Source of the DNA: a virus
DNA length: 40,865 nucleotides
UHGV virus genome: UHGV-0180691
Reading direction: 5' to 3' (one strand)
The position numbers were made by a program, and so were the translations under genes. This document shows positions 720 through 20,881 of this stretch, piece after piece (within the stretch, counting starts at the first letter, position 1; each line of letters opens with the position of its first letter). The notes under the pieces were generated by a model that was not told where the DNA came from, made no database searches, and saw only the letters and a program-made list of their open reading frames with translations.

Positions 720-1883
720 TTAAGATTTTTTTTCTATCGATGTCCTTCCATCATACTCAGTCAGGTATTTTCCGTAATGGCGGAACAGCATTTCCGGTCC
801 CTTATGCCCCATTTGTCCCGCAAGCCAAAACAGGTTAGCTCCTTGACTGATATGTCTGGTGGCGAACGTATGCCTAGTCTGATATGGGTTTCTATAACGA
901 ATACCAGCCTTACGTAATGTTGGAACCCATGCTTTTTTTCTAATTGCATCAGCACTGGCCCAAGGTTTGTTCCTTTTTGGGTCTTCGAATATCATTTCAC
1001 CTTTCATAAAAGTGAACAGTTTCTGGCTGTCGAGAGCCGCCAATGCTTCTTCAGTCAGTTCTACTTTCCTTGTGCCTGCTTTTGTTTTTGTTGCTTTAAT
1101 GACACCAACTACACTGGCATTTTGAACGTGTGCTGTCCTGCCTACAAAGTCGATATCACGCCAACGAAGAGCACACAACTCAGAACTACGCAGCCCGGTT
1201 TGTATAGCGAACCGAAAAAGGTTCTCACACTGCTTATTGCCAGTTGCTGAGAGCAATGCGTCAACTTCTGTTGGCGTCAAAGGATCTACCACATAACTAC
1301 TTTCTGCCTCTGATTTATCACTTTGGTAACGTGAGGCTGTCACTAGTGATACAGGGTTAATCTGAAGAATACCATCCGTCACCGCCTCATCCAAAGCAGA
1401 ACGCAGGAATGACAGCTGGTTTCGAATAGTCTTTAATGTGGTTTTCTGGCTCTGGATCCATGTCTTCAATGCAGCTGGCGTCAACTCACTTGCAGGAAAA
1501 ATATGAAGTGCTGACAGCGCGCTTCGGCATTTCTTATATCCGCCAATTGTTGAAGGGGACAGTTTCCTCGTTTCGCATATCACCAAATATTCGTCCAAGT
1601 ACATCTTCACAGTTTTACCGGCGGCAGCGTTGCCAAAAATTCTTAACCGGTTAGAACGAGGAAAGTATTCCGCATAAACGAAAGTCCCCCTCTCGATCTT
1701 GTTATATATTTCTCCGAGTGTGCGCTCGGCGTACTTAATGTTTTTTGGAGTTACGTCCAGATTAGAAAGGGGCTCACGGCATTTTACCCCTTTATAAGTG
1801 AAGGTAATATTTATGGTTTCACCGTTGCGATGTTTCCTGATGGTTACGCCGCGTGGGAGTTTAGGCGATTCTGTCGTGCCCAT
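720..1883 (-). CDS. int: phage tyrosine integrase
   Basis: 387 aa; C-terminal catalytic region with conserved R...HxxR...Y context (RHTFATRHISQGANLFWLAGQMGHKGPEMLFRHYGKY); located at prophage end with overlapping excisionase-like gene upstream. Confidence 0.9.
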   Translation of the reverse strand: MGTTESPKLPRGVTIRKHRNGETINITFTYKGVKCREPLSNLDVTPKNIKYAERTLGEIYNKIERGTFVYAEYFPRSNRLRIFGNAAAGKTVKMYLDEYLVICETRKLSPSTIGGYKKCRSALSALHIFPASELTPAALKTWIQSQKTTLKTIRNQLSFLRSALDEAVTDGILQINPVSLVTASRYQSDKSEAESSYVVDPLTPTEVDALLSATGNKQCENLFRFAIQTGLRSSELCALRWRDIDFVGRTAHVQNASVVGVIKATKTKAGTRKVELTEEALAALDSQKLFTFMKGEMIFEDPKRNKPWASADAIRKKAWVPTLRKAGIRYRNPYQTRHTFATRHISQGANLFWLAGQMGHKGPEMLFRHYGKYLTEYDGRTSIEKKS

Positions 1884-2062
1884 TTTGCAACCTCACTAAG
1901 ATCAATCCATCTTTCCTTAACGCCTTCGACCTTTAGCACCTGAACCCCTTCACGCCACACTCCGCGCTGTATGCGCTTATTAATAGCATCAGGGGTTTCG
2001 CCAGTCTCTTTGCAATAAGTTGAGATGGGAACACAATCGAGGCTCAGCATATACTTCTCCAT
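1844..2062 (-). CDS. xis: excisionase-like small DNA-binding protein
   Basis: 72 aa basic protein immediately upstream of and overlapping int start; position typical of xis. Confidence 0.55.
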   Translation of the reverse strand: MEKYMLSLDCVPISTYCKETGETPDAINKRIQRGVWREGVQVLKVEGVKERWIDLSEVAKWARQNRLNSHAA

Positions 2063-2084
2063 TAACCCGGCTGCACCCGAGTAA

Positions 2085-2657
2085 TTAATATTTGTCGCTG
2101 GTGGTAGGGATCAGTTTCTGCCAAATTGCTGACACGTATTTTGCCTGATGGCGCGCATCAGCCAGGGCATTGTGCACATCGCCAATAAAAGGCATGTCAC
2201 GCTTCGGATCGAAACCGACACTGCGACCGAGCGTAACAATAGTGCGCACATCGTGATCGTTCCAAAAGGCCCAAGGGCAAATGCGGCCGGCGCGTTCGTA
2301 AGCTCCACGCAGAATCACATTGTCAAAGGTGGCACCGTTACCCCAGACCTTCATGTATTTGGGATTATCTGCGTGCCGGTGAATGAAATGGCTCAGTTCC
2401 GACAGTGCATCAGTGATAGGCATCGCATCATCAACGCAAATAGCTGAGCGCGCTTCTGAGCTTTGTTTGAGCCACCAAAGAATAGTATCTCCGTCCGGTA
2501 CCGCACCCTGATCCATTGCGCTTTCAAGCGAGACGGCCGTATAGAATTCTTGGCCAAGTTCACATGTATGAGGGTTAAAAAAGACGGCACCAATTGACAC
2601 GATCGGCGCGTTTGGCTTTTTTCCCATTGATTCGAGGTCAATCATTAAGTCGTTCAA
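2085..2657 (-). CDS. putative 3'-5' exonuclease (DnaQ-like fold, phage early-left region)
   Basis: 190 aa; acidic N-terminal motif MIDLESMG resembling exonuclease motif I; 4-bp ATGA overlap with upstream ORF suggests translational coupling. Family assignment from memory, not searched. Confidence 0.5.
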   Translation of the reverse strand: MNDLMIDLESMGKKPNAPIVSIGAVFFNPHTCELGQEFYTAVSLESAMDQGAVPDGDTILWWLKQSSEARSAICVDDAMPITDALSELSHFIHRHADNPKYMKVWGNGATFDNVILRGAYERAGRICPWAFWNDHDVRTIVTLGRSVGFDPKRDMPFIGDVHNALADARHQAKYVSAIWQKLIPTTSDKY

Positions 2658-2947
2658 TTGCTTTCTCCATTGTTAATTCTTGGCTTTTGATTCACTGGGG
2701 GGGGGGGGTAGCGCGAGTCGGCGTTGTCGCTAACGTGGCAATAATGAGCCCCGTCAGGACGAGTACAAATTGTCCCGCACCTATCACATGCCAATATTGC
2801 TTCCAGCTCCGCAATCCGCTCCTCTGCTTTTGACAACTGCTCGAGAAGTTCTTCTGCTAACGTCACACGCATCACGACTTTCTGACAGTCGTGGCGTTTG
2901 GCTCTGGCGATTGTGCCGCGCAGAGTCGCATATTTGTTTGTGGTCAT
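2654..2947 (-). CDS. hypothetical small protein containing a poly-proline stretch encoded by a G12/C12 homopolymer
   Basis: 97 aa ORF; coiled-coil-like segment (EELLEQLSKAEERIAELEAIL) and CxxC; in operon context with overlapping neighbours. Confidence 0.4.
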   Translation of the reverse strand: MTTNKYATLRGTIARAKRHDCQKVVMRVTLAEELLEQLSKAEERIAELEAILACDRCGTICTRPDGAHYCHVSDNADSRYPPPPVNQKPRINNGESN

Positions 2948-3141
2948 TGGACGGACTCCTGACGAAGATGGTTAATTTCGGCGTCAAGGCTCATTCGCTG
3001 GTCCATCGATTCCGTCAAGGCGGCAAATGTAACGTCCAAGCGAGTGGCTACCTCACGCATCAGAGAGGCTTCTGCTGGTGGCAGTTTCCCCGCCGCAGCA
3101 TGGGCTGCGGCTACCAGTTCTTTTATCTTCATGCGTGGCAT
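2944..3141 (-). CDS. hypothetical small early protein
   Basis: 65 aa ORF with overlapping start/stop to neighbours on the same strand. Confidence 0.35.
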   Translation of the reverse strand: MPRMKIKELVAAAHAAAGKLPPAEASLMREVATRLDVTFAALTESMDQRMSLDAEINHLRQESVQ

Positions 3142-5777: not shown

Positions 5778-6473
5778 TTATCCGTGCCGTTTAACTGACT
5801 GCGACTGGCTGATCATTACCTTGCCGAAAACGTAAAATCTGTCTTCATTGGACTTATCCACTGACCACTCCCGATATTTAGGGTTATCGGAAATGACAAG
5901 AATTTTATCTGGGATCATCTGTAATCTTTTGACGTAAATTTTATCATCAAAACCAAAGACATAAATCCCATCACCATCAAACTCATTAATCGAAATATCA
6001 ACGAATATCAAATCACCTGGTTCAATGGTATCAGCCATGCTGTCACCACGAACGTTAATCACTTTGACCGTATCTGGTGTTCTCCCACCAAATAATGCGG
6101 CGGCTCTTTCGTTGTTGTACTCAATGGACCTGATGACATCGACGACATCACTACCTTGTATATGGCCCATGCCAGCACTGGCGCTGACATCGAGCAACTC
6201 GACTCTAAACACAGGGTCACCCTCTCCATAAGCTGGATTTTTACCACTGGATTTACATACAGTATTTTCATTTGGAGATGGTGTAAAGAGTTCTGCCACG
6301 CTGACACCAAGTGCCGTAGCATATTTGCTAAGCGATTGTTCAGTAAATGACTTTTGTTTTCCAGTCTCAACCCGTGAGACGTTCGCACCGTCAATACCTA
6401 CAGCTTCAGCAAGATCTGAAATTTTCATGCCCTTTTCGAGGCGTAATTCTCTAATGCGGTTTCCTATGTTCAT
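5778..6473 (-). CDS. cI: CI-like prophage repressor (N-terminal HTH, C-terminal LexA/S24-like autopeptidase domain)
   Basis: 231 aa; N-terminal HTH (IRELRLEKGMKISDLAEAVGIDGANVSRVETG); C-terminal domain with GDSM and VKRL context typical of S24 Ser/Lys dyad; divergent from cro-like gene. Confidence 0.9.
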   Translation of the reverse strand: MNIGNRIRELRLEKGMKISDLAEAVGIDGANVSRVETGKQKSFTEQSLSKYATALGVSVAELFTPSPNENTVCKSSGKNPAYGEGDPVFRVELLDVSASAGMGHIQGSDVVDVIRSIEYNNERAAALFGGRTPDTVKVINVRGDSMADTIEPGDLIFVDISINEFDGDGIYVFGFDDKIYVKRLQMIPDKILVISDNPKYREWSVDKSNEDRFYVFGKVMISQSQSVKRHG

Positions 6474-6570: not shown

Positions 6571-6834
6571 ATGCAATCACCGTTAAGAAATTTGCGAAAA
6601 TCGCAAGGTTTGACTCTCTCTCATGTGGCAAACGTGGTGGACATTGATCCAGCCAACCTAAGCCGAATTGAAAGGGGTCAACAAATCGCATCACTCGATG
6701 TAGCTGAAAGGCTTGTGAAGTTTTATTCGGGCCAAATTGATGAGCTCCAAATCTTGTACCCGCACCGTTATACGCAGGCTACAGAAACTGGGGAAGCAAC
6801 GGTACCACAGGAAAAAGGGGAAAGCCGTGGGTAA
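6571..6834 (+). CDS. cro: Cro-like HTH transcriptional regulator
   Basis: 87 aa; HTH (LRKSQGLTLSHVANVVDIDPANLSRIERG); divergent from cI; RBS AGGGGG upstream. Confidence 0.8.
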   Translation: MQSPLRNLRKSQGLTLSHVANVVDIDPANLSRIERGQQIASLDVAERLVKFYSGQIDELQILYPHRYTQATETGEATVPQEKGESRG

Positions 6835-7375
6835 CGAACCGGAATGGAAAGTTGATAAGCAGCCAGCCTGGCTGGTGGCCGCAATCAAAAAAACAATCAC
6901 CGAACTGCCGGGCGGATATTCAGAAGCTGCTGAGTGGTTGGGTGTGACCGAGAACGCGCTGTTTAACCGGCTGCGTACCGATGGTGATCAGATCTTCCCG
7001 CTCGGTTGGGCGATGGTGCTTCAGCGTGCTGGTGGTTCAAACCACATCGCGAACGCTATTGCACGTCACTCGAACGGTGTTTTTGTGCCATTGGCTGATG
7101 TTGAAGAGATTGAGAACGGCGATATCAACCAGCGTCTCATGGAGTCAGTTGAGTGGATCGGCAGGCATTCGCAATACGTTCGTAAAGCTACCGCTGACGG
7201 CGTTATTGATGCTCAGGAACGCGCCCAGATCGAAGAGAACAGCTATCAGGTGATGGCTAAGTGGCAGGAACATTTGACGCTGCTTTTCCGTGTGTTTTGC
7301 GCGCCGGAAAAGAGTGACGCCCGCGAGTGTGCAGCTCCGGGCGTCGTGGCAGACAAATCTTGTATGGAGAAGTAA
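6827..7375 (+). CDS. putative CII-like/YdaT-like early regulatory protein
   Basis: Start moved to GTG at 6827 (RBS GGGGAAAG upstream; overlaps cro stop); position immediately after cro; family assignment tentative. Confidence 0.4.
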   Translation: MGNEPEWKVDKQPAWLVAAIKKTITELPGGYSEAAEWLGVTENALFNRLRTDGDQIFPLGWAMVLQRAGGSNHIANAIARHSNGVFVPLADVEEIENGDINQRLMESVEWIGRHSQYVRKATADGVIDAQERAQIEENSYQVMAKWQEHLTLLFRVFCAPEKSDARECAAPGVVADKSCMEK

Positions 7376-7716: not shown

Positions 7717-8571
7717 ATGAGCACTAAATTAACGGGTTACGTTTGGGACGCTTGTGCCGCTTCTGGCATGAAGCTGTCCAGCGTTGCCATCATGGCGCGT
7801 CTGGCAGACTTCAGCAGTGATGAAGGGGTTAGCTGGCCTTCCATCGCTACCATCGCGCGCCAGATTGGTGCCGGTGAGAGCACGGTTCGCACAGCCATAT
7901 CTCAACTGGAAAAAGACGGGTGGTTAACCCGCCAGCAGCGCCGTAAAGGCAACCGCAATGCATCGAACGTTTACCAGCTCAATGTTGCGAAATTACAGGC
8001 TGCTGCTTTTTCTCACCTGTCAGATTCTGACGCATCAAATTCTGATGCCTCAAAAACCGACGCGTCAAAATCTGAGGCATCAAAAAACGATGAAAAAGGC
8101 GGTTTTCACCCGTCAGAATCTGGGGGGGATCCGTCAGTAAATACAACTACTGATCCATCAGTTAAAAAACCTTTTTGTCCGGTTGCGCCGCAACCAGACC
8201 CTGAAGTGATGATTACCGATAACGCCATCCTGGTTCTGAATCATCTGAACCTGGTTAGCGGCTCACGATACCAAAAATCAAAAACTTCTCTGGAAAACAT
8301 CCGTGCTCGCTTGCGCGAAGGTTACACCGTTGGTGACTTACAACTGGTGATTGACCTTAAGCATGAGCACTGGAACGGCAATGACGTGCAGTACCAGTAC
8401 ATGCGCCCTGAAACGCTATTTGGCCCGAAAAAGTTCGAGGGTTATCTGCAAAGCGGGATCCGTTGGGACAAGAAGGGGCGTCCACCACGTGAAAGCTGGG
8501 GTGAAAAGAAACACGATCCGATGAAGTTCGGTCCGGTTGATACCAAGATTCCAGAGGGGTTCAGAGGATGA
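7717..8571 (+). CDS. replication initiation protein (O-like, N-terminal winged-HTH; conserved phage C-terminal domain)
   Basis: 284 aa; position after cro/cII; internal low-complexity linker encoded by direct repeats (iteron-like) as in lambda O; RBS AAAGGA upstream. Confidence 0.65.
   Translation: MSTKLTGYVWDACAASGMKLSSVAIMARLADFSSDEGVSWPSIATIARQIGAGESTVRTAISQLEKDGWLTRQQRRKGNRNASNVYQLNVAKLQAAAFSHLSDSDASNSDASKTDASKSEASKNDEKGGFHPSESGGDPSVNTTTDPSVKKPFCPVAPQPDPEVMITDNAILVLNHLNLVSGSRYQKSKTSLENIRARLREGYTVGDLQLVIDLKHEHWNGNDVQYQYMRPETLFGPKKFEGYLQSGIRWDKKGRPPRESWGEKKHDPMKFGPVDTKIPEGFRG
8026..8088. repeat. four direct repeats with 15-bp periodicity (core GAYGCNTCAAAA), iteron-like, inside the replication gene
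   Basis: Cores start at 8029, 8044, 8059, 8074; followed by an A-rich stretch; encode the SDASNSDASKTDASKSEASKND linker. Confidence 0.5.
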
Positions 8572-9455
8572 CGGAAAATAAATACTGCCGCGCACTGGCT
8601 GAACTCCGTTCAAAACCAGCGCATGAATTGAAAGAAGTTGGCGATCAGTGGCGAACTCCAGATCTACTTTTTTGGGGCATCAATTCGATATTTGGCCCGA
8701 TGGCTCTGGATCTGTTTGCAGATGATAGCAATGCAAAATGCCCTGCATGGTATACCGCCGAAGATAACGCGTTGACGCAGGACTGGTCAGAACGTCTGGC
8801 AGAACTCGGTGGCGCCGCGTTTGCTAACCCGCCATACAGCCGTTCTCAGTACCATGAAAAGCAGGCCATCACTGGCATGACTCACATCATGAATCACACA
8901 ATGGCTATGCGTGATAAAGGTGGTCGTTACATATACCTCGTGAAGTCAGCCACAAGTGAAACATGGTGGCCGGAGGATGCCGATCACATCATGTTTATTC
9001 GTGGTCGTATTGGGTTTGATCTTCCTGTTTGGTTTGTTCCCGCTGACGAGAGGCAGCAACCCACCAGCGCATTTTTTGCCGGGGCAATAGCTGTTTTCGA
9101 CAAAACCTGGCGTGGTGAAAGCTTCAGCTATATCAATCGCACCGAACTGGAAGAAAAAGGGCGTGCAGCATTGTCATTGGCTCAATTCGCCGCGGCAAAA
9201 ATGGCCCTTCCTTCGGTGCCGGAAAAAGCAATGCCTACTCCAATTGCAACACCTGATGCAGAGTCGCGCATCTGGCCTCTTGAGGTTGGACTGGTGTTTA
9301 ACCAAATTGAAGGGGCTGACGCTCTACCTGTTTCACAGCAGAACAAGCTGAAAGCCAATATCAACCAGCTGTGGCTCGAACGTATGCCTACGAGTGAAAT
9401 TATCACGACCGCTGGTGGTCTCTTCAACAGCATGCAGGGGGCCGTCAATGCGTGA
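8568..9455 (+). CDS. DNA N6-adenine methyltransferase (phage Dam-like)
   Basis: 295 aa; motifs DLFADDSN and FANPPYS (NPPY catalytic motif); stop overlaps start of the next methyltransferase gene. Confidence 0.7.
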   Translation: MTENKYCRALAELRSKPAHELKEVGDQWRTPDLLFWGINSIFGPMALDLFADDSNAKCPAWYTAEDNALTQDWSERLAELGGAAFANPPYSRSQYHEKQAITGMTHIMNHTMAMRDKGGRYIYLVKSATSETWWPEDADHIMFIRGRIGFDLPVWFVPADERQQPTSAFFAGAIAVFDKTWRGESFSYINRTELEEKGRAALSLAQFAAAKMALPSVPEKAMPTPIATPDAESRIWPLEVGLVFNQIEGADALPVSQQNKLKANINQLWLERMPTSEIITTAGGLFNSMQGAVNA

Positions 9456-11385
9456 AATCATCGTTGATAACTTTGCCGGTGGTGGCGGCGCGAGTACCGG
9501 CATTGAACTGGCCATCGGGCGTAGCGTGGATATCGCTATCAACCACGACGAAAACGCTATTGCGATGCATAAGACGAATCACCCAGACACGCTGCATTAT
9601 TGCGAGTCGGTGTTTGACGTTGACCCAAGCGCAGCCACCAGCGGTAAACCTGTCGGCCTGGCCTGGTTTAGCCCTGACTGCCGCCACTTTTCCAAAGCGA
9701 AGGGCGCTAAGCCAGTTAAGAAAGAGATTCGCGGGCTGGCGTGGATTGTTCTGCGCTGGGCGCTGGCAGTACGTCCCCGAGTCATGATGCTGGAGAACGT
9801 CGAAGAATTTAAGACATGGGGCCCGCTGCTGGATGAAGAATTACGCCCGGATCCTGAGCGTGCTGGTGAAACATTCGAGGCATTTGTCGGCATGCTGTCG
9901 ACTGGTATCGCTGCGAATCACCCAGCACTGGCTGAGGTTTGCGAATTTCTTGCCATTGAGCCGCACGGCAAGCAGGCGCAACAGCTGATCGCCGGGCTTG
10001 GCTATGAGGTCGATTATCGTGAACTGCGCGCTTGTGACTATGGCGCGCCGACGATCAGAAAGCGTTTCTTCATGGTCATGCGTTGTGACGGCCGCAAGAT
10101 TCATTGGCCTGAAGCGACTCATGGGGATCCAAAATCACTGGAAGTACAAAGCGGCAAGCTGGCGCCATGGCGTACCGCGGCGGAGTGCATTGACTGGAAT
10201 ATCCCGGCCCGGTCCATCTTCGACCGCAAAAAGCCGCTGGCGGAAAATACGCTCAAACGTATCGCGCGCGGCATCCAGCGTTTCGTTATCGAGAGTGCTT
10301 CGCCGTTTATCGTTAAGTGCAACCACACCACGTCACACGGCAAATATGATTGTTTCCGTGGGCAGGAGCTCGAGGCTCCATTACAAACCATCACGAAAAC
10401 CCACGGCTATGCGCTGGCGGTACCGCATCTTACTAAATTCCGCACCGGGGCCACCGGGCAGCCAGTGACCGAGCCGGTTCCAACTGTCACCGCTGGTACG
10501 TCGGCGCGCCCGGGCGGGAATGGACATGCGCTTGGCGTAGTTGAGGCCGCCCTGACACCGTTCCTGGCTGGCAATGGCGGCAGTGAGTACCAGGCAAAGC
10601 CGCGCCCGCTGGATAAACCCGCTCATACAATCCTCAAGCAGTCCCACGCGTGCGTGGTTGCGCCGGTCATCGCCCGCCAGTTTGGCGCCAGTGTTGGGCA
10701 CAGGGCTGACGAACCGAGCGCGACGATTACTGCAGGTGGTGGCGGTAAGTCGCAGCTGGTAACTCCAACATTGATCCAGATGGGGTACGGCGAACGCCCA
10801 GGACAAGAACCGCGTGTTCTTCAACTGAATAACCCGCTCGGCACGGTCACTGCTGGTGGTAATAAGTTTGCAACGGTGAGCGCGTTCCTGGCGAAGCACT
10901 ATGGTGGGAATTACACGGGGCCGGGTGTTGGTATGGATGAGCCTGCCCATTCAGTCACTACTGTTGATCATCACGCGGTAGTTGCGTCGCACCTGGTGAA
11001 GCTGCGCGGAACCTGCCGCGACGGTCAGACCATGGATACACCTATGCCGACGATTACCGCTGGTGGCCAGCATGTTGGCGAGGTCCGGACATTCCTCGAA
11101 ACATACTGCGGTGATAGCGAGGATGAATGGCTGGTGACGATCGAGGGGGTTAAGTACCAGATCGTCGATATCGGAATGCGCATGCTGCAACCGCATGAGC
11201 TTTATAAGGCGCAGGGCTTCCCTGACGGCTACGTTATCGATCAGGACTATCGCGGCAATCGTTACGCCAAAGACAAGCAGGTAGCGCGCTGCGGTAACGC
11301 AGTACCGCCGCCGTTCGCTCGTGCTCTGGTAGAAGCAAATCTTCCTGAATTATGTGCAAATCAAAAGGCGGGTGCAGCCGCCTGA
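9448..11385 (+). CDS. DNA cytosine-5 methyltransferase with extended repeat-containing variable region
   Basis: Start at ATG 9448 (MREIIVDNFAGGGGASTG = motif I); SPDCRHFS (catalytic Cys motif IV), MLENVEEF (ENV motif VI), C-terminal LQGFP and GNAVPPPFARAL (motifs IX/X); about 360-aa region between motifs VIII and IX with repeated T(V/I)TAGG modules. Confidence 0.85.
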   Translation: MREIIVDNFAGGGGASTGIELAIGRSVDIAINHDENAIAMHKTNHPDTLHYCESVFDVDPSAATSGKPVGLAWFSPDCRHFSKAKGAKPVKKEIRGLAWIVLRWALAVRPRVMMLENVEEFKTWGPLLDEELRPDPERAGETFEAFVGMLSTGIAANHPALAEVCEFLAIEPHGKQAQQLIAGLGYEVDYRELRACDYGAPTIRKRFFMVMRCDGRKIHWPEATHGDPKSLEVQSGKLAPWRTAAECIDWNIPARSIFDRKKPLAENTLKRIARGIQRFVIESASPFIVKCNHTTSHGKYDCFRGQELEAPLQTITKTHGYALAVPHLTKFRTGATGQPVTEPVPTVTAGTSARPGGNGHALGVVEAALTPFLAGNGGSEYQAKPRPLDKPAHTILKQSHACVVAPVIARQFGASVGHRADEPSATITAGGGGKSQLVTPTLIQMGYGERPGQEPRVLQLNNPLGTVTAGGNKFATVSAFLAKHYGGNYTGPGVGMDEPAHSVTTVDHHAVVASHLVKLRGTCRDGQTMDTPMPTITAGGQHVGEVRTFLETYCGDSEDEWLVTIEGVKYQIVDIGMRMLQPHELYKAQGFPDGYVIDQDYRGNRYAKDKQVARCGNAVPPPFARALVEANLPELCANQKAGAAA

Positions 11386-11399
11386 TATGGAGAAATAGC

Positions 11400-12092
11400 A
11401 TGAATCAGTTAACCGCAAAGGGTGTTGTGACAATGTCCAGCCGTGAAATTGCCAGGCTGGTGCAGAGCAAACATGGTGATGTGAAGCGCTCAGCTGAGCG
11501 CCTTGCATCTGCTGGTATTTTAACCGCGCCGTTGGCGCACACCCCCTACACACACCCGCAAAACGGGCAAACCTACGAGGAGTATTGGTTCAACAAACGT
11601 GATTCTCTGGTGATCGTCGCCAGGCTGTCGCCAGAATTTACCGCCGCTGTTGTCGATCGCTGGCAAGAGCTGGAGAACAGCCAGGCCGTAAGTGTCCCGC
11701 AAACATTGCCGGAGGCATTACGTCTCGCCGCGGATCTGGCCGAGCAGAAAGAACAACTCAGCCAGCAGTTAGCCGCTGCCGCGCCGAAAATTGAGTTTGT
11801 CGATCGGTATTGTACTGCCAAAGGCTCAATGTCTTTCCGCCAGGTGGCAAAGCTGTTGCAGGCCAAAGAGACCGATTTCCGCTTGTTCCTCATTGAGAGC
11901 GACATTATGTACCGGCTCGGCGGAGTGCTGACACCGCGGCACCAGCACATTGCTGCCGGGCGGTTTGAAGTGAAAACTGGCACCACGAGCGAAACAAACT
12001 ACGCCTTTAGCCAGGCACGTTTTACACCCAAAGGCATCGAGTGGATCGGCGGCCTGTGGACGGCACACATCGCTAAGGGGCATGCCGCGTGA
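11400..12092 (+). CDS. Rha/antirepressor family protein (N-terminal Rha-like, C-terminal Ant-like domain)
   Basis: ATG at 11400 with GGAG upstream; N-terminal MSSREIARLVQSKHGDVKR pattern typical of Rha family; assignment from memory. Confidence 0.6.
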   Translation: MNQLTAKGVVTMSSREIARLVQSKHGDVKRSAERLASAGILTAPLAHTPYTHPQNGQTYEEYWFNKRDSLVIVARLSPEFTAAVVDRWQELENSQAVSVPQTLPEALRLAADLAEQKEQLSQQLAAAAPKIEFVDRYCTAKGSMSFRQVAKLLQAKETDFRLFLIESDIMYRLGGVLTPRHQHIAAGRFEVKTGTTSETNYAFSQARFTPKGIEWIGGLWTAHIAKGHAA

Positions 12093-13150
12093 GAGGACTG
12101 TTTACAGCCGAGACTGTTCCTCGCCTTGGCCTAGTGGTGTTAAAGCCGGGCAGCGAACTGATGTCTCTGTTTCAACAGGGGCGTGTGCTGGTGGAGCCTC
12201 AGCCAAAAAGCATGGCTGGGCTTCCGTCGGGCCTCGTCCCTGATGCCAGGCAGCCGCTGGCAGAAGATAAGTCCCTCGAGGAATTCTTCACCGACGAGAG
12301 AGTAATCCGTGCAGCTGGCGGTTTGACCGCGTTGGAATCCTGGTTAGAACGTAACGTGAAGGAATGCCAGTACCCGCACACTGATTATCACCATCATGAG
12401 CTGGTAACGATGCGACACCCCCCTGGATCAATGTTGCTCTGTTGGCATTGCGATAACCAGCTGCGCGATCAAACCACCGCGGCGCTGGCAGAACTGGCCC
12501 GGCGTAATCTCATTAACTGGCTGATCAGTTCCATCCTGTCATCGCTTGGCTATAACAACGAGCGTGAATTATCCCTCGGTGAATTGTGCTGGTGGGCCGT
12601 CTATTCAGGCATTGCTGTTGCAATCACGGAAAGGATGGCCCAGCGTGCGCTTCGATTACCGGACGAGTCGTTTTTATCCGTATATCGAGAAAGTGACATT
12701 GTGCCGATGCCCCCCGCTAAAAGCATTTTGCAGAAGAAGGTCACCCCTGCGGTCACGGCTGCGAAATTAAAGCATGGAGCAAATCAGGAAGTGGCCTATG
12801 ACCAGCCAAAGGTTCTGGCTCTGCATGCGGATCCTGAATCCCCTGAATCATTCATGTTGCGCCCAAAACACCGCAGGTGGATGAATGAGGACTATACCCG
12901 GTGGGTTAAAACCCAGCCCTGTGAAGGTTGCCGGCGGCCAGCGGATGATCCACACCATGTCATTGGTCACGGCATGGGCGGTACCGCCACTAAAGCCCAC
13001 GATTTGTTCGTGATCCCTCTGTGCAGAGAGTGTCACGACAAATTACATGCTGATGTTGCAGCGTTCGAGAAAAAACACGGTACCCAGCTGGAGCTGCTAT
13101 TCCGGTTTATGAATCGAGCGCTGGCGATCGGCGTAATAACAAAAGCGTAA
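12089..13150 (+). CDS. DUF968-type phage protein (YdfU-like) with C-terminal Cys/His HNH-like motif
   Basis: 353 aa; GTG start with AAGGGG RBS; C-terminal CEGCRRPADDPHHVIGHG...CRECHDKLH. Confidence 0.55.
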   Translation: MRGLFTAETVPRLGLVVLKPGSELMSLFQQGRVLVEPQPKSMAGLPSGLVPDARQPLAEDKSLEEFFTDERVIRAAGGLTALESWLERNVKECQYPHTDYHHHELVTMRHPPGSMLLCWHCDNQLRDQTTAALAELARRNLINWLISSILSSLGYNNERELSLGELCWWAVYSGIAVAITERMAQRALRLPDESFLSVYRESDIVPMPPAKSILQKKVTPAVTAAKLKHGANQEVAYDQPKVLALHADPESPESFMLRPKHRRWMNEDYTRWVKTQPCEGCRRPADDPHHVIGHGMGGTATKAHDLFVIPLCRECHDKLHADVAAFEKKHGTQLELLFRFMNRALAIGVITKA

Positions 13151-13171
13151 TTGTATGGAGCGCTGAGCATA

Positions 13172-13864
13172 ATGAATTTACAAGAACTGGAATATACGCG
13201 GATTGAACTGCGCCGCGCGCTGGCGGATTTATCAGGATCGACAAAAGGACAGCTGCAGGCGTTCAGTGAGCATCCACCAGCAGATAAGAATAAATACCCT
13301 CGGCACCATCCTGAAATCGTCATGGAGGGTGGGGAAGGTTGTGGATCGAAGGTTGTAAAAACTCTGGCCACTCCGCTTTATGTTCTTGAGACAAGGAGCC
13401 GTCGCCGACCTTTACCGCCTATTAAGGATACGGAGTTCGCTTGTTCAGCATGGCGTCGATCGGTCAATGGTCTGGGGGCGCATTTGCAGGCATGGGTGCG
13501 GTACTGCTATGGGCATGACCTTGCTTTCCGGTACCAGAGGTTAATGTGCCAGCACGTATGGGAAGAGTTTCAGCGTCAGCATAGCGGCAAAAAAATCCAA
13601 GACCGTGTCACTAAAAAACTGGTAGGGCTTGTCTGGCTGGCGGCGCAAGAAGTTGCTGCCTCGCGTAATAACGATACCTATCAGGAGTATGCTGGAGCAG
13701 CTCTGGCGCGCATGGTCAGCGTTGAGCGTTCCACCTGGCTCAGAGTGTATTCAGGCCACTGGGCAGCTTTCAAAGCGTCGTTTTCGGAGATGGACAGCCA
13801 GGCACTAAGCGAAATTTTGACACGGTACGAAGAGTACCAAGAACTGAAAGTGGCGGAAATGTGA
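13172..13864 (+). CDS. putative late-gene antiterminator (Q-like)
   Basis: ATG at 13172 with GGAG upstream; immediately upstream of a strong intrinsic terminator and the lysis cassette, the canonical Q position; sequence family not verified. Confidence 0.5.
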   Translation: MNLQELEYTRIELRRALADLSGSTKGQLQAFSEHPPADKNKYPRHHPEIVMEGGEGCGSKVVKTLATPLYVLETRSRRRPLPPIKDTEFACSAWRRSVNGLGAHLQAWVRYCYGHDLAFRYQRLMCQHVWEEFQRQHSGKKIQDRVTKKLVGLVWLAAQEVAASRNNDTYQEYAGAALARMVSVERSTWLRVYSGHWAAFKASFSEMDSQALSEILTRYEEYQELKVAEM

Positions 13865-14550: not shown

Positions 14551-15603
14551 ATGAAAAATACTGTAAATATAAACAGTGTTGAGCTTATCAACGCTGACTG
14601 CCTGCAATACCTAGCAACCCTCCCAGATAACACCATCGACCTTATTGTTACGGATCCGCCTTATTTTAAGGTGAAGCCGAACGGCTGGGATAATCAGTGG
14701 AACGGTGACGCCGACTATCTTCGCTGGCTTGATATGTGTCTTGCCCAGTTCTGGCGAGTGCTTAAGCCTGCCGGCAGCCTGTATTTGTTTTCAGGTCACC
14801 GACTTGCATCCGATATTGAGATCATGATGCGTGAACGCTTCAACGTCATGAACCACATTATCTGGGCGAAGCCATCAGGGCGCTGGAACGGGTGTAATAA
14901 AGAAAGCCTGCGCTCTTACTTTCCCGCGACGGAACGCATCCTTTTCGCTGAGCATTATCAGGGGCCATATAAGCCGAAAAGCGACGGGTTTGCTGAGAAA
15001 AGCAACGAGGTCAAACAGCACGTCATGGCTCCGTTAATCACCTACTTTCGGGATGCACGAGCCGAACTGGGGGTCACGTCCAGGCAAATAGCTGACGCCA
15101 CCGGAAAGAAAAATATGGTGTCTCACTGGTTCGGTGCCAGTCAGTGGCAACTACCGAACGAGCAGGATTACGAAAAGCTGCAGGAATTGTTCACTCAGAT
15201 CGCCATTGAGAAGCACCGCGCCTCAGAACTCAAAGCACCGCATCACCAGCTGGTGGCCACATGGCATTCGTTGAACCGGAAATACCTTGATCTGCTGGAA
15301 GAGTACAAATCTCTTCGGCGGCATTTCTCTGTGACAGTAGCCGTGCCCTATACAGACGTCTGGACACATAAACCCGTCCAGTTCTATCCAGGCAAACACC
15401 CGTGCGAAAAGCCCGCTGATATGTTGCGGCAAATCATCAACGCCAGCAGCAGGCCCGGCGATGTGGTAGCTGATTTCTTTATGGGCTCGGGATCAACTGT
15501 TAAAGCAGCCATTGAACTGGGCCGCCAGGCTATCGGCGTAGAACTGGAAGAGGAACGTTTCAACCAGACGGTAAGTGAGGTGAGGCAGCTGGCAGGGGAA
15601 TAA
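14551..15603 (+). CDS. DNA methyltransferase, N6-adenine/N4-cytosine class (beta-type, DPPY motif)
   Basis: 350 aa; VTDPPYF (motif IV) near N-terminus and FFMGSGST (motif I, AdoMet binding) near C-terminus, the order typical of beta-class amino-methyltransferases. Confidence 0.8.
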   Translation: MKNTVNINSVELINADCLQYLATLPDNTIDLIVTDPPYFKVKPNGWDNQWNGDADYLRWLDMCLAQFWRVLKPAGSLYLFSGHRLASDIEIMMRERFNVMNHIIWAKPSGRWNGCNKESLRSYFPATERILFAEHYQGPYKPKSDGFAEKSNEVKQHVMAPLITYFRDARAELGVTSRQIADATGKKNMVSHWFGASQWQLPNEQDYEKLQELFTQIAIEKHRASELKAPHHQLVATWHSLNRKYLDLLEEYKSLRRHFSVTVAVPYTDVWTHKPVQFYPGKHPCEKPADMLRQIINASSRPGDVVADFFMGSGSTVKAAIELGRQAIGVELEEERFNQTVSEVRQLAGE

Positions 15604-18263: not shown

Positions 18264-18758
18264 ATGGATCATGAATTAAAGCGACTGCAGCTTAACGTCA
18301 GCCAGCTGGCGGCCTTGTCCGGTGTGCATCGCCAGACTGTGTCAGCCAGGCTGAAAAATGTCCGTCCGGCAGGTGGCAACGACAGCAACCTGAAACTGTA
18401 TGGCCTGACAGATGTCCTTGCTGAGCTGATGAAAATGCCTGCCCCGGTAGCTGAAGGAGAAATGGAGCCTCAGGACCGTAAAGCCTGGTATCAGTCAGAG
18501 CGTGAAAGGCTGAAGTTTGAACAGGAAGTAGGAGAGCTTATTCCCGCTTCAGATGTTGCACGCGAGTTTGCCGAAATGGCGAAGGCCATGATTCAGGTTC
18601 TTGAGACGTTGCCGGATATTCTTGAGCGCGATTGTGCGCTTAATCCTGCAACGGTTTCCCGCGTCCAGTCGATTATTGACGATCTCCGTGATGAAATTGC
18701 CCGGCGGGTCATGAGTGACGAAGAAAAAGCAGAGGAGGACATCCTGGAGGAGGAATAA
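18264..18758 (+). CDS. terminase small subunit (putative, HTH-containing)
   Basis: ATG 18264 with GGAG upstream; N-terminal HTH-like (LNVSQLAALSGVHRQTVSARL); acidic C-terminus; immediately upstream of and abutting the large terminase gene. Confidence 0.6.
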   Translation: MDHELKRLQLNVSQLAALSGVHRQTVSARLKNVRPAGGNDSNLKLYGLTDVLAELMKMPAPVAEGEMEPQDRKAWYQSERERLKFEQEVGELIPASDVAREFAEMAKAMIQVLETLPDILERDCALNPATVSRVQSIIDDLRDEIARRVMSDEEKAEEDILEEE

Positions 18759-20881
18759 TGTTGGCACTGGCGACCGCCCTCACATTGAAACGTGACACCG
18801 GACACCTGATTAAAGCGCCACGCAGAATGCCTGTATCAGTGGCGGTAGCAAAATATATGCGTGTCCCCACCTCCGGAGGTAATTCCGTCCCCTGGGATCC
18901 GATGGTGGCGCCTTATGTTCTGGAGCCTATGGACTGCCTGGCATCCCGTGAATACGACGCCGTGATATTCGTCGGACCTGCCCGAACGGGTAAAACAAAT
19001 GGTCTGATTGACGGATGGGTGGTTTACAACATCGTCTGTGATCCGTCCGATATGCTGCTGGTGCAAATGACACAGGATAAGGCACAGGAGCACTCAAAAA
19101 AGCGTCTTGCCCGAACATTTCGCTGCAGTCCGGAAGTCAGAAAAAACCTGAGCCCCCGGCATAATGACAACAACGTTCACGATAAGTATTTCCTTTCAGG
19201 TAGCTTCCTGAAAATTGGCTGGCCATCCATCAATGTCATGTCGTCATCAGATTTTAAGTGTGTGGCGCTGACGGATTATGACCGATTCCCTGAGGATATT
19301 GATGGCGAGGGCGACGGCTTCTCACTGGCCTCCAAACGTACAACCACCTTCATGTCCGCCGGGATGACGCTTGTAGAGAGTTCTCCGGGGCGTGATATTC
19401 GTGACAGCAAATGGCGCCGCAAGTCTCCTCATGAAGCTCCACCGACGACCGGTATTCTTTCCCTGTACAACCGTGGCGATCGCCGCCGCTGGTACTGGCC
19501 GTGTCCGCACTGCGGTGAATATTTTCAGCCTGCTATGGAGTCCATGACCGGCTACCGTGATGAACCGGATCCGGTTAAAGCCAGTGAGGCGGCACACCTG
19601 CTTTGTCCGCACTGCAGCGGCATTATCACTGCGGATAAAAAGCGCGAGCTTAACGGCGCAGGAGTCTGGTTGCGGGAAGGGCAGAGTATTGACCGTGACG
19701 GCAATGTATCCGGCGAACCGCGGCGATCGCGCATAGCCAGTTTCTGGATGGAAGGACCCGCAGCCGCTTATCAGACCTGGGCGCAGCTGGTGTACAAGCT
19801 GCTGACAGCTGAGCAGGAGTATGAGGCCACTGGCAGCGAAGAAACCCTCAAGGCGGTAATCAATACCGACTGGGGGCTACCATACCTGCCGCGCGCAGCC
19901 AGCGAACAGAGGCGCGCCGATGTGCTGATGCAGCGGGCGGAGGATTACGGTAAGCGCCTGGTCCCGCCTAAGGTGCGTTTCCTGCTGGCGGCCGTTGACG
20001 TCCAGGGCGGCAAAAAGCGCCGTTTCGTCGTGCAGATTATCGGTTATGGCGAAAACGGTGAACGCTGGCTGGTGGATCGCTACAACATCCGCCAGTCGCT
20101 GCGCTGCAATGAGCATGGCGAGGCGGAGCCGATCCACCCGGGCGCGTATCCGGAGGACTGGCAACTGCTGGTCTCCGATGTGCTGGAAAAAACGTATGCG
20201 CTGCAGTCTGACCCGGCGCGGCGTATGCCGGTGCTGGCGATGGCCGTCGACAGCGGCGGTGAAGAAGGCGTGACGGACAACGCGTATAAATTCTGGCGAC
20301 AGTGTCGGCGTGACGGCCTGGGTAAACGTGTTTACCTGGTTAAGGGCGACAGCACAAAGCGTCAGAAAATCATTACCAAAACCCACCCGAATAATACCGA
20401 ACGCAGCGACCGTCGCGCCGACGCGCGCGGCGAGGTGCCGGTGTATCTGCTTCAGACCGACCTGCTTAAGGACCAGCTCAGCAACAACCTGGACCGCGAA
20501 ACCCCCGGTGGCGGATACATCCATTTTCCTGACTGGCTGGGGGAGTGGTTCTACGAGGAACTGACCTATGAAGAACGCGGTGTTGATGGCAAATGGCGAA
20601 AACCCGGCAAGGGCGCCAACGAAGCCTTTGACCTGTTCTGCTATGCGCACGCCGTGGCGGTTCTGCGCGGGTACGAAAAAATTCGCGACTGGGAAAAACC
20701 TCCTGCATGGGCTGAGCCGCAGGATCTCAATCCAAATATTCATGAAGGGACCCCCCCCCGGGAGATAACCGTGAAAAAAACAAAACCCGTTCAGTCGCCT
20801 GTGCAGGCTGAACCTGAAAAGGACACAGCCCTCTCCGGCAGCTGGCTCGGGTCTTCCGTTAAGGGAGGCTGGTTGCTGTGA
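18758..20881 (+). CDS. terminase large subunit (lambda GpA-like)
   Basis: 707 aa; Walker A-like VGPARTGKT; CxxC...CxxC zinc-like motif (CPHCGEYF...CPHCSG); size and context of GpA-family terminases. Confidence 0.9.
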   Translation: MLALATALTLKRDTGHLIKAPRRMPVSVAVAKYMRVPTSGGNSVPWDPMVAPYVLEPMDCLASREYDAVIFVGPARTGKTNGLIDGWVVYNIVCDPSDMLLVQMTQDKAQEHSKKRLARTFRCSPEVRKNLSPRHNDNNVHDKYFLSGSFLKIGWPSINVMSSSDFKCVALTDYDRFPEDIDGEGDGFSLASKRTTTFMSAGMTLVESSPGRDIRDSKWRRKSPHEAPPTTGILSLYNRGDRRRWYWPCPHCGEYFQPAMESMTGYRDEPDPVKASEAAHLLCPHCSGIITADKKRELNGAGVWLREGQSIDRDGNVSGEPRRSRIASFWMEGPAAAYQTWAQLVYKLLTAEQEYEATGSEETLKAVINTDWGLPYLPRAASEQRRADVLMQRAEDYGKRLVPPKVRFLLAAVDVQGGKKRRFVVQIIGYGENGERWLVDRYNIRQSLRCNEHGEAEPIHPGAYPEDWQLLVSDVLEKTYALQSDPARRMPVLAMAVDSGGEEGVTDNAYKFWRQCRRDGLGKRVYLVKGDSTKRQKIITKTHPNNTERSDRRADARGEVPVYLLQTDLLKDQLSNNLDRETPGGGYIHFPDWLGEWFYEELTYEERGVDGKWRKPGKGANEAFDLFCYAHAVAVLRGYEKIRDWEKPPAWAEPQDLNPNIHEGTPPREITVKKTKPVQSPVQAEPEKDTALSGSWLGSSVKGGWLL

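Follow-up and report, generated by a model that had tools for sequence, protein, structure and literature searches.

The question raised by one gene of the virus genome UHGV-0180691, a stretch of 40,865 nucleotides (nt) that was analyzed at its full length and is called the window here, is whether a single phage protein could methylate several unrelated DNA sequences. The gene encodes a C5-cytosine DNA methyltransferase of 645 amino acids (aa) in which much of the interval between the conserved motifs VIII and IX is built from short, similar modules, and an earlier note on this DNA had proposed that these might be tandem target recognition domains (TRDs) like those of the multispecific enzymes of the Bacillus phages SPR and phi3T. 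By analogy with such enzymes, we suggest that the protein is probably an anti-restriction methyltransferase whose tandem array of seven mini-TRDs, each with a TL motif, provides alternative recognition units. The array has the architecture of the multispecific C5 methyltransferase class, and the activity that defines the class is predicted.

Membership of the C5-cytosine methyltransferase family is established. The product matches PF00145 (C5-cytosine DNA methylase) in Pfam with an E value of 1.8e-20, its motifs follow the canonical order, with I, IV, VI, and VIII before the variable region and IX and X after it, and the catalytic residues of motifs I to X are invariant across alignments of 71 and 146 diverse homologues; motifs IX and X align with those of DNMT1/MET1. 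The canonical Pro-Cys dipeptide of motif IV is absent, Asp77 preceding the catalytic Cys78, and the HMMER alignment pairs this s-p-d-c with the G-P-P-C of 3g7u. The whole subfamily reads W-F-S-P-D-C at this position, which is invariant in the 146 diverse homologues; S-P-D-C is a hallmark of the subfamily and not evidence against membership of the C5 family. Sequence, profile, and Foldseek searches of the Protein Data Bank aligned only the catalytic core, to 3g7u, DNMT1/MET1, M.HhaI, and M.HaeIII, and returned no solved structure resembling the module array. The longest open reading frame (ORF) of the gene begins at GTG 9394, which the earlier note had adopted as the start; this choice must be given up in favor of ATG 9448 (MREIIVDNF, MREIIVDNFAGGGG), at which all homologues begin.

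All seven peptides quoted in the earlier note were found in the product of this gene, and its count of at least seven modules is upheld by the pattern P-x-x-[TS]-[ILV]-[TASVLN], which occurs exactly seven times in the protein, always at a module, compared with a mean of 0.33 and a maximum of 4 in 20,000 composition-preserving shuffles. The stricter T[VIL]T[AKT] occurs five times, with 0.12 expected. The conserved Thr/Ser residues of the seven modules lie at aa 314, 346, 394, 426, 466, 502, and 535 (nt 10387 to 11050); neighboring modules are 32 to 48 aa apart, and module size is 34 to 45 aa. The variable region of 360 aa that had been described corresponds well to the interval from motif VIII (R204/R206) to motif IX (R578), which measures ~370 aa, but the array itself occupies only aa ~297 to 550 (nt 10336 to 11097). 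Circularity was avoided by the use of an independent profile, built only from the modules of 42 distant family members with catalytic domains <62% identical, which scored all seven modules at 10.7 to 26.0 bits (Table 1) and gave a best score of 1.5 bits in the other ORFs of the window (25,000 residues). When the modules are aligned on the Thr/Ser, Pro stands at -3 and acidic or polar residues stand at -4 and -5, the motif reading T-(I/V)-T-A-G-G; each module has a Gly-rich loop upstream of the motif and a hydrophobic junction strand (h-V-x-P-x-h) downstream, the strands being ALAVPHL, ALTPFL, CVVAPVI, LVTPTLI, TVSAFLA, AVVASHL, and EVRTFLE. Repeats at the DNA level are limited to ~18 nt of motif codons, which rules out a recent tandem duplication and indicates that the modules are old and diverged.

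The modules agree with the published TRD consensus in its core, the TL motif. According to PMC2413257, the TRD consensus of C5 methyltransferases is (YFW)-X-(RK)-X5-P-(STCA)-P-T-(ILV)-(TASV)-X5-16-H-(PFYWL), located 10 to 50 aa before motif IX, DNA contacts are made by the residues that flank the TL motif, and this motif served Trautner and colleagues in defining and modifying the target recognition of multispecific enzymes. All seven modules have the core, P-x-x-(T/S)-(I/V)-(T/L), and five have a His no more than 14 residues past the six-residue core; the full literal consensus matches none of the seven and, as written, also finds no match in SPR, M.HaeIII, or M.HhaI. Module 7, at 43 aa, is the only one within 50 aa of motif IX, the other six being 76 to 264 aa away. 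A profile of the family's modules scored the solved TRD of M.HaeIII (T237-V238) at 13.5 bits (background maximum, 0.8), and the distant-only profile scored it at 5.8 bits (background maximum, 1.5), with a single module match in residues 191 to 324 of that enzyme. In the SPR-type enzymes, module profiles scored the C-terminal TRD of SPR, H2, rho11s, and phi3T at 4.6 to 8.6 bits, and a BLASTP comparison of the array with SPR returned one short match only, of module 6 with EPAFTVNTIDRHGVAV (E = 0.005), whereas the other Bacillus TRDs (S-P-T-L-T-T, with Pro at -1) gave profile scores at or below 0 and no significant match. Because BLASTP yielded this one short match, we make no claim of homology to the Bacillus TRDs beyond the motif. 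The enzymes of SPR, phi3T, rho11s, and H2 share a C-terminal module, (D/G)EPAFTVNTIDRHGVA, to which module 6 of the query (EPAHSVTTVDHHAVVA, DEPAHSVTTVDHHAVVA) is closest and which resembles the TRD segment of M.HaeIII; from the latter likeness, we take it to be a common GGCC TRD.

The sequences of SPR, phi3T, rho11s, and H2, once retrieved and translated, contain 3, 2, 4, and 4 T-(L/I/V) motifs, respectively, in the variable region, 30 to 48 aa apart. SPR-type enzymes are described as tandem-TRD enzymes and that of SPR as triple specific; a 2025 review of restriction-modification gives broad self-protection against restriction as the presumed role of the multispecific enzymes of Bacillus temperate phages. 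Like M.SPRI, M.Phi3TI, M.Rho11sI, M.H2I, and M.SPBetaI, the protein studied here is a phage-borne orphan with one core and contiguous TL modules of ~40 aa between motifs VIII and IX, and, as among the Bacillus phage enzymes, module sets differ between related phages. The parallel that had been drawn with SPR and phi3T is therefore sound with respect to the single core, the tandem TL modules of ~35 to 45 aa, their matching spacing, and their cassette-like variation, but TRD sequence similarity is at the motif level only; architecture and motif are common to both groups, and the arrays may or may not share descent. The protein differs from SPR in its catalytic subfamily (S-P-D-C at motif IV versus P-C-Q) and from the Bacillus enzymes in the number of modules (seven, and up to ~10 in relatives, versus two to four) and in its hosts, which are Enterobacteriaceae and many other phyla, and its activity is predicted.

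Monospecific enzymes provide a second point of reference. M.HaeIII (1DCT/3UBT) and M.HhaI (1MHT) have the same catalytic fold and motifs, with one module and one target each, versus seven modules here. M.HhaI has an analogous Gly-rich loop, T250-L251, and a G-G-G segment (VGKGGQGERIYSTRGIAITLSAYGGG); it has no Pro at -3 and is not matched by the module profile. In the M.HhaI-DNA structure obtained by Klimasauskas and coworkers in 1994, two Gly-rich loops around T250-L251 reportedly give essentially all base-specific contacts, and if this is so, a TL unit of ~35 aa can carry a complete specificity. The closest solved core is 3g7u, a putative methyltransferase of the E. coli O157 prophage CP-933R (Foldseek E = 1.4e-10, phmmer E = 6.4e-07), which, like the query, is encoded by an enterobacterial prophage; it has 376 aa, a canonical P-P-C-Q, and no module array, and only its core aligns, over ~224 columns at 20% identity. 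Two further C5 enzymes reported to be multispecific, both from Firmicutes and compared with the query by description only, are M.BceSV of Bacillus cereus, which is prophage encoded and silent in the host genome, and M.(phi)BssHII, whose TRDs are placed by the title of the report at separated locations and not in a single tandem array. The 2025 review cites only Bacillus phage multi-TRD enzymes, and no multi-TRD C5 enzyme was described in Enterobacteriaceae or outside Bacillus-type systems in this review and our full-text searches, a scope that excludes REBASE and most of the subscription literature.

The modules vary among homologues as whole cassettes. Thousands of homologues emerged from a search of 5.8 billion proteins; the best 120 of them, from Enterobacter, Klebsiella, Citrobacter, Salmonella, Kluyvera, Raoultella, and E. 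coli, are 77 to 98% identical and fall into discrete length classes of 605 to 695 aa. Alignment resolved most length differences among these 120 into in-register blocks of 34 to 45 aa, i.e., whole modules, the remainder being an insertion of ~21 to 24 aa after motif VI and one of 17 aa after module 7. Between the query and proteins that are 86 to 97% identical to it, module 2, 3, 4, or 5 is lost or a module is added. Module 2 is missing as a block from Citrobacter phage phiNP and from one 'CFEABMA' homologue, module 3 is missing as a 35-aa block from homologues P0027 and P0062 (91 to 93% identical elsewhere), module 4 is missing as a 34-aa block from P0087, and module 5 is missing as a 39-aa block from P0035, P0057, P0053, and phiNP, the last of which lacks both modules 2 and 5 and has an additional terminal module. 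Directly after module 6, P0002, P0023, P0087, and P0012 have an extra module, EPLQTLTTKADS, and P0037 has a different one, SPAHTVTTGNHH; the modules inserted here are of types K and B-like. The breakpoints of module gain and loss all lie within the conserved junction strands, and module 6 is kept in all close homologues.

When 1,603 modules from 240 family proteins were clustered, ~200 sequence clusters and 116 architectures were obtained, these counts being approximate since the labels S and M are mis-anchored B-type modules. The architecture of the query is C-G-F-E-A'-B-A, type C (module 1) always being the first module in the enterobacterial clade, and those of distant proteins are, for example, I-B-E-A-D, O-B-E-A-D, and H-B-E-D. 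The same types recur in differing order among relatives (e.g., ...E-A-B-A, I-B-E-A-D, and H-B-E-D): type E varies in position in the distant arrays (IBEAD and HBED), and type A is last or next to last almost everywhere in the family. No module of the family is conserved more widely than module 7, which is of type A; its residues P532, T535, G540, and H542 show no variation across 146 sequences. No frameshifts and no stop codons were found in hundreds of homologues. The natural variants indicate that folding and selection tolerate the loss of modules; that the remaining specificities persist does not follow.

The array is under purifying selection, which is clear in both comparisons made. Relative to the gene of Escherichia phage Flotzy (96% nt identity), the ratio of nonsynonymous to synonymous substitution rates (dN/dS) is 0.02 for the N-terminal catalytic part (aa 1 to 290) and 0.19 for the array; relative to that of phiNP (79% nt identity), the ratios are 0.075 and 0.063, respectively, and are rough because dS is saturated in this comparison. 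The array is functional sequence, neither a linker nor a recent duplication.

The family to which the enzyme belongs is very large and mostly phage borne. Two of its clusters at 90% identity hold 1680 and 1124 member sequences, respectively, and E. coli, with the gene in 13 of 5426 complete genomes, is a species in which it is uncommon. The view that such an enzyme would be unusual for an enterobacterial prophage is thus right as regards description, there being none in the literature searched, but wrong as regards occurrence, which these two clusters show to be common. When 1.84 billion cluster representatives were searched by HMMER with filters off, 8,579 proteins passed E < 1e-3 and 2,582 passed E < 1e-30, the weaker matches probably including general C5 methyltransferases; the best 150 of the 8,579 were inspected, and in the 140 of these that could be scored, the strict motif count was 0 to 10 per protein, with a mode of 4 to 6, and the stretch from motif VIII to motif X lengthened by ~31 aa per module (r = 0.66). 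Members found by profile search come from Brenneria, Pectobacterium, Serratia, Yersinia, Bordetella, Pseudomonas, Paenibacillus, Cohnella, Sporomusaceae, and Terrimicrobium. The distant Bordetella member lies in a prophage-like region with an Arc repressor, a ParB-HTH protein, and an integrase, and the distant Cohnella member lies in one with DnaB, an SNF2 helicase, an integrase, and two further methyltransferases; no endonuclease gene was seen when these two regions were looked through. The multi-module member of Cohnella xylanilytica adjoins a D12-class adenine methyltransferase and a ParB_N-N6_N4 methyltransferase (8063 to 8872 and 11713 to 12993).

Some family members are much longer. The homologues P0129, P0181, P0199, P0202, P0204, P0211, P0244, and P0267 (883 to 1113 aa) are interrupted at motif IV by an intein of the Hint or Hint/LAGLIDADG kind, so that the extra length is that of an intein and a reading of these proteins as methyltransferase fusions was ruled out. 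Where both junctions are readable, the intein is inserted precisely after the Asp, immediately ahead of the catalytic Cys (WFSPD/CFPAGT...VVHN/CKHFSKAKG), and the +1 extein residue is therefore the catalytic nucleophile.

Structure prediction was informative for the catalytic core. AlphaFold2 gave a mean predicted local distance difference test (pLDDT) score of 48, with the array below 40, when 121 close homologues were used and scores of ~85 to 98 for most of aa 1 to 250 when 146 sequences, including homologues 41 to 71% identical, were used. A few junction strands, including aa 402 to 409 and aa 437 to 443, were modeled as beta at low confidence. With the fold of the array modeled at low confidence, the modules may be separate units or parts of one integrated domain, and we know of no structure of any multi-TRD enzyme.

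Several points weigh against a multispecific enzyme. In the better AlphaFold2 run, aa 286 to 560 had pLDDT scores of 26 to 59, and neither run gave this region a confident fold; the likeness to experimentally defined TRDs is short and at the level of the motif; and motif IV has Asp for the canonical Pro before the catalytic Cys, a substitution that may affect activity. The multispecific activity of the family is a prediction from architecture. Most of the 140 scorable proteins have four to six modules, and the multi-module build could be a structural habit of the family and not a count of specificities. Modules 1, 6, and 7 are invariable among close homologues, and module 7 is near universal in the family, a constancy that fits a structural role as well as a specificity role; these modules may be framework.

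Of the alternatives, the one that survives best, although we regard it as unlikely, is that the seven modules constitute one composite, repeat-built DNA-binding domain, such as a beta-hairpin meander or solenoid, that reads a single target, possibly a long, degenerate, or relaxed one, the module copy number tuning affinity, processivity, or target length and not the number of specificities. Such a domain would agree with the presence of several modules in most representatives and with the constancy of modules 1, 6, and 7; the conserved hydrophobic junctions, two of which were modeled as beta strands at low confidence, could pair into one sheet, and no structure contradicts this arrangement. 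A single cooperative readout is, however, hard to reconcile with the gain, loss, and reordering of modules, since intact and widespread variants lack any one of modules 2 to 5 or possess an extra module and since module order differs between relatives. Furthermore, the module types are separately conserved and not homogenized, and monospecific enzymes need one module only, as the single match in M.HaeIII illustrates.

A more doubtful alternative is that the enzyme is effectively monospecific, with one functional module, most likely that nearest to motif IX, and with the rest as relic pseudo-TRDs or flexible spacer. Inactive TRDs are reported for the rho11s and H2 enzymes. The low pLDDT across the array would fit this explanation, as would the fact that only module 7 lies at the distance from motif IX at which the consensus sets a functional TL motif. 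Relics or spacer would nevertheless not be expected to show the constraint found over the whole array (dN/dS, 0.06 to 0.19), the full motif and the scores with the independent profile that all seven modules retain, the conservation of module types across proteins with catalytic domains <62% identical, and the freedom from frameshifts and stop codons of hundreds of homologues. That the repeats are a compositional or low-complexity artifact of a Gly/Thr-rich linker with no specific role is scarcely credible: the region is poorly modeled and richer than the rest of the protein in Gly (13% versus 8%) and Thr (11.5% versus 3%), but shuffles that keep this composition yield 0.33 motifs versus the seven observed, the modules recur at regular, in-register intervals, conservation extends to the positions on either side of the motif, purifying selection acts on the array, and the profile matches the solved TRD of M.HaeIII.

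Table 1. Features of the C5 methyltransferase gene, its product, and the surrounding window
Feature	Position (nt)	Strand	Residues (aa)	Remarks
C5-cytosine DNA methyltransferase gene, complete	9448-11385	+	645 aa	ORF and translation; PF00145
N-terminal catalytic part	9448-10335	+	1-296	Motifs I, IV, VI, and VIII, then conserved helix-containing segment reaching the array
Motif I, FAGGGG		+	9-14	F9, G11, and G13 invariant
Motif IV, S-P-D-C	9670-9681	+	S75-P76-D77-C78	Catalytic Cys78; invariant in subfamily
Motif VI, E-N-V		+	E116-N117-V118	In N-terminal catalytic part; invariant
Motif VIII, T-I-R-K-R		+	R204 and R206	In N-terminal catalytic part; both Arg invariant
Module 1, type C	10336-10431	+	~297-328	FRGQELEAPLQ-TITKTHGYALAVPHL; 22.4 bits
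Module 2, type G	10432-10566	+	329-373 (45 aa)	TKFRTGATGQPVTEPVP-TVTAGTSARPGGNGHALGVVEAALTPFL; 15.5 bits
Module 3, type F	10567-10671	+	374-408 (35 aa)	AGNGGSEYQAKPRPLDKPAH-TILKQSHACVVAPVI; 10.7 bits
Module 4, type E	10672-10776	+	409-443 (35 aa)	ARQFGASVGHRADEPSA-TITAGGGGKSQLVTPTLI; 20.4 bits
Module 5, type A-like (A')	10777-10890	+	444-481 (38 aa)	QMGYGERPGQEPRVLQLNNPLG-TVTAGGNKFATVSAFL; 17.2 bits
Module 6, type B	10891-10995	+	482-516 (35 aa)	AKHYGGNYTGPGVGMDEPAH-SVTTVDHHAVVASHL; 26.0 bits
Module 7, type A	10996-11097	+	517-550 (34 aa)	VKLRGTCRDGQTMDTPMP-TITAGGQHVGEVRTFL; 25.5 bits
C-terminal catalytic part, through stop codon	11098-11385	+	551-645	Motifs IX and X; pLDDT 70-94
Motif IX, R578-M-L-Q-P-H-E584...QGFP		+		In C-terminal catalytic part; R578 and E584 invariant
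Motif X, G616-N-A-V-P-P		+		In C-terminal catalytic part; G616-N617 invariant
Integrase	720-1883	-		
CI-like repressor	5778-6473	-		
CII-like protein	6737-7375	+		
Replication protein	7717-8571	+		
Dam-family N6-adenine methyltransferase	8568-9455	+		PF05869, E = 2.3e-44
Ant	11352-12092	+		
DUF968 protein	12089-13150	+		
Q antiterminator	13151-13864	+		
Beta-class adenine/N4 methyltransferase	14551-15603	+		PF01555
Terminase large subunit	18758-20881	+		

Judged by its gene content, the window is a lambdoid prophage (Table 1), and the C5 enzyme is an orphan of a temperate phage, with no cognate endonuclease: in the early region in which the gene lies, from the CI-like repressor to Q, there is no endonuclease gene. 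The DUF968 protein encoded two genes downstream shows at its C terminus a weak, HNH-like match to PF16784 (E = 0.002, below the curated cutoff); DUF968 is a common gene of the lambdoid nin region, and nothing marks this protein as a restriction partner. On the upstream side, ATG 9448 overlaps the stop codon of the Dam-family gene by 8 nt (ATGCGTGA), an overlap that suggests translational coupling, and the Dam-family gene is likely a coexpressed partner of the C5 gene. The pair recurs in E. coli prophages and in phiNP. In Flotzy, what precedes the C5 gene, 96% identical, is not a Dam-family gene but a gene of 445 aa with the annotation phosphoadenosine phosphosulfate reductase (1674 to 3008), and the upstream partner is therefore exchangeable. 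The pair may resemble the fused Dam/C5 architecture of phage P1 Dmt.

The possibility that the upstream adenine methyltransferase is the nonspecific M.EcoGII was ruled out, since M.EcoGII is a beta-class enzyme with an N-terminal DPPY and the upstream gene belongs to the Dam family of PF05869. The window contains a third methyltransferase gene downstream of Q, whose product of 350 aa carries DPPY close to its N terminus and FMGSGS close to its C terminus and is 77 to 81% identical to the methylase of the Stx2, SfV, cdtI, mEp460, and phiP27 phages. The class, length, and prophage setting of this product are as described for M.EcoGII, a likeness by description only.

If the C5 enzyme is multispecific, as we favor, each module would bring a short DNA sequence of its own to the one catalytic site that all of them share, as proposed by analogy with SPR, phi3T, rho11s, and H2, and one protein could methylate several unrelated targets, at most ~seven. 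The number is probably lower, given that the constant modules 1, 6, and 7 may serve as framework and that some modules may be inactive. Given where the gene lies in the rightward early operon, downstream of the replication gene and upstream of Q, it would be silent in the lysogen and expressed only after induction. Progeny DNA would then be premethylated against many restriction systems of future hosts, with the two adenine methyltransferases of the same prophage acting beside the C5 enzyme. Heavy 5-methylcytosine (5mC) would be a liability in McrBC/McrA-positive hosts, and the scarcity of the gene in E. coli might be connected with this. The independent action of the modules, the number of targets, and the timing of expression are what we infer from the array and its setting. 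A bolder proposition, which we offer tentatively and consider possible but short of probable, is that this is the most multispecific DNA methyltransferase known, with ~4 to 7 independent targets, and that it belongs to a very large, unrecognized, pan-bacterial phage family sharing interchangeable mini-TRD cassettes of ~35 aa (~200 clusters in 240 proteins), from which new repertoires against restriction would arise by recombination at the conserved junction strands; such a family would represent a naturally programmable platform for cytosine methylation.

Multi-TRD cytosine methyltransferases have so far been regarded as an oddity confined to a few Bacillus phages. If the proposed function is correct, phages of Enterobacteriaceae (Salmonella, Enterobacter, Klebsiella, Citrobacter, and Yersinia) and of many other phyla would commonly counter host defenses through broad-spectrum self-methylation by modular enzymes, and such methylation would help to explain 5mC signals that arise only after prophage induction and are poorly detected by long-read methylome surveys. 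The natural variants that differ by a single module offer an existing set of deletions with which a target could be assigned to each module, and short portable modules would serve as parts for the construction of methyltransferases of chosen specificity. How several recognition units share one active site is now a question of broader relevance.

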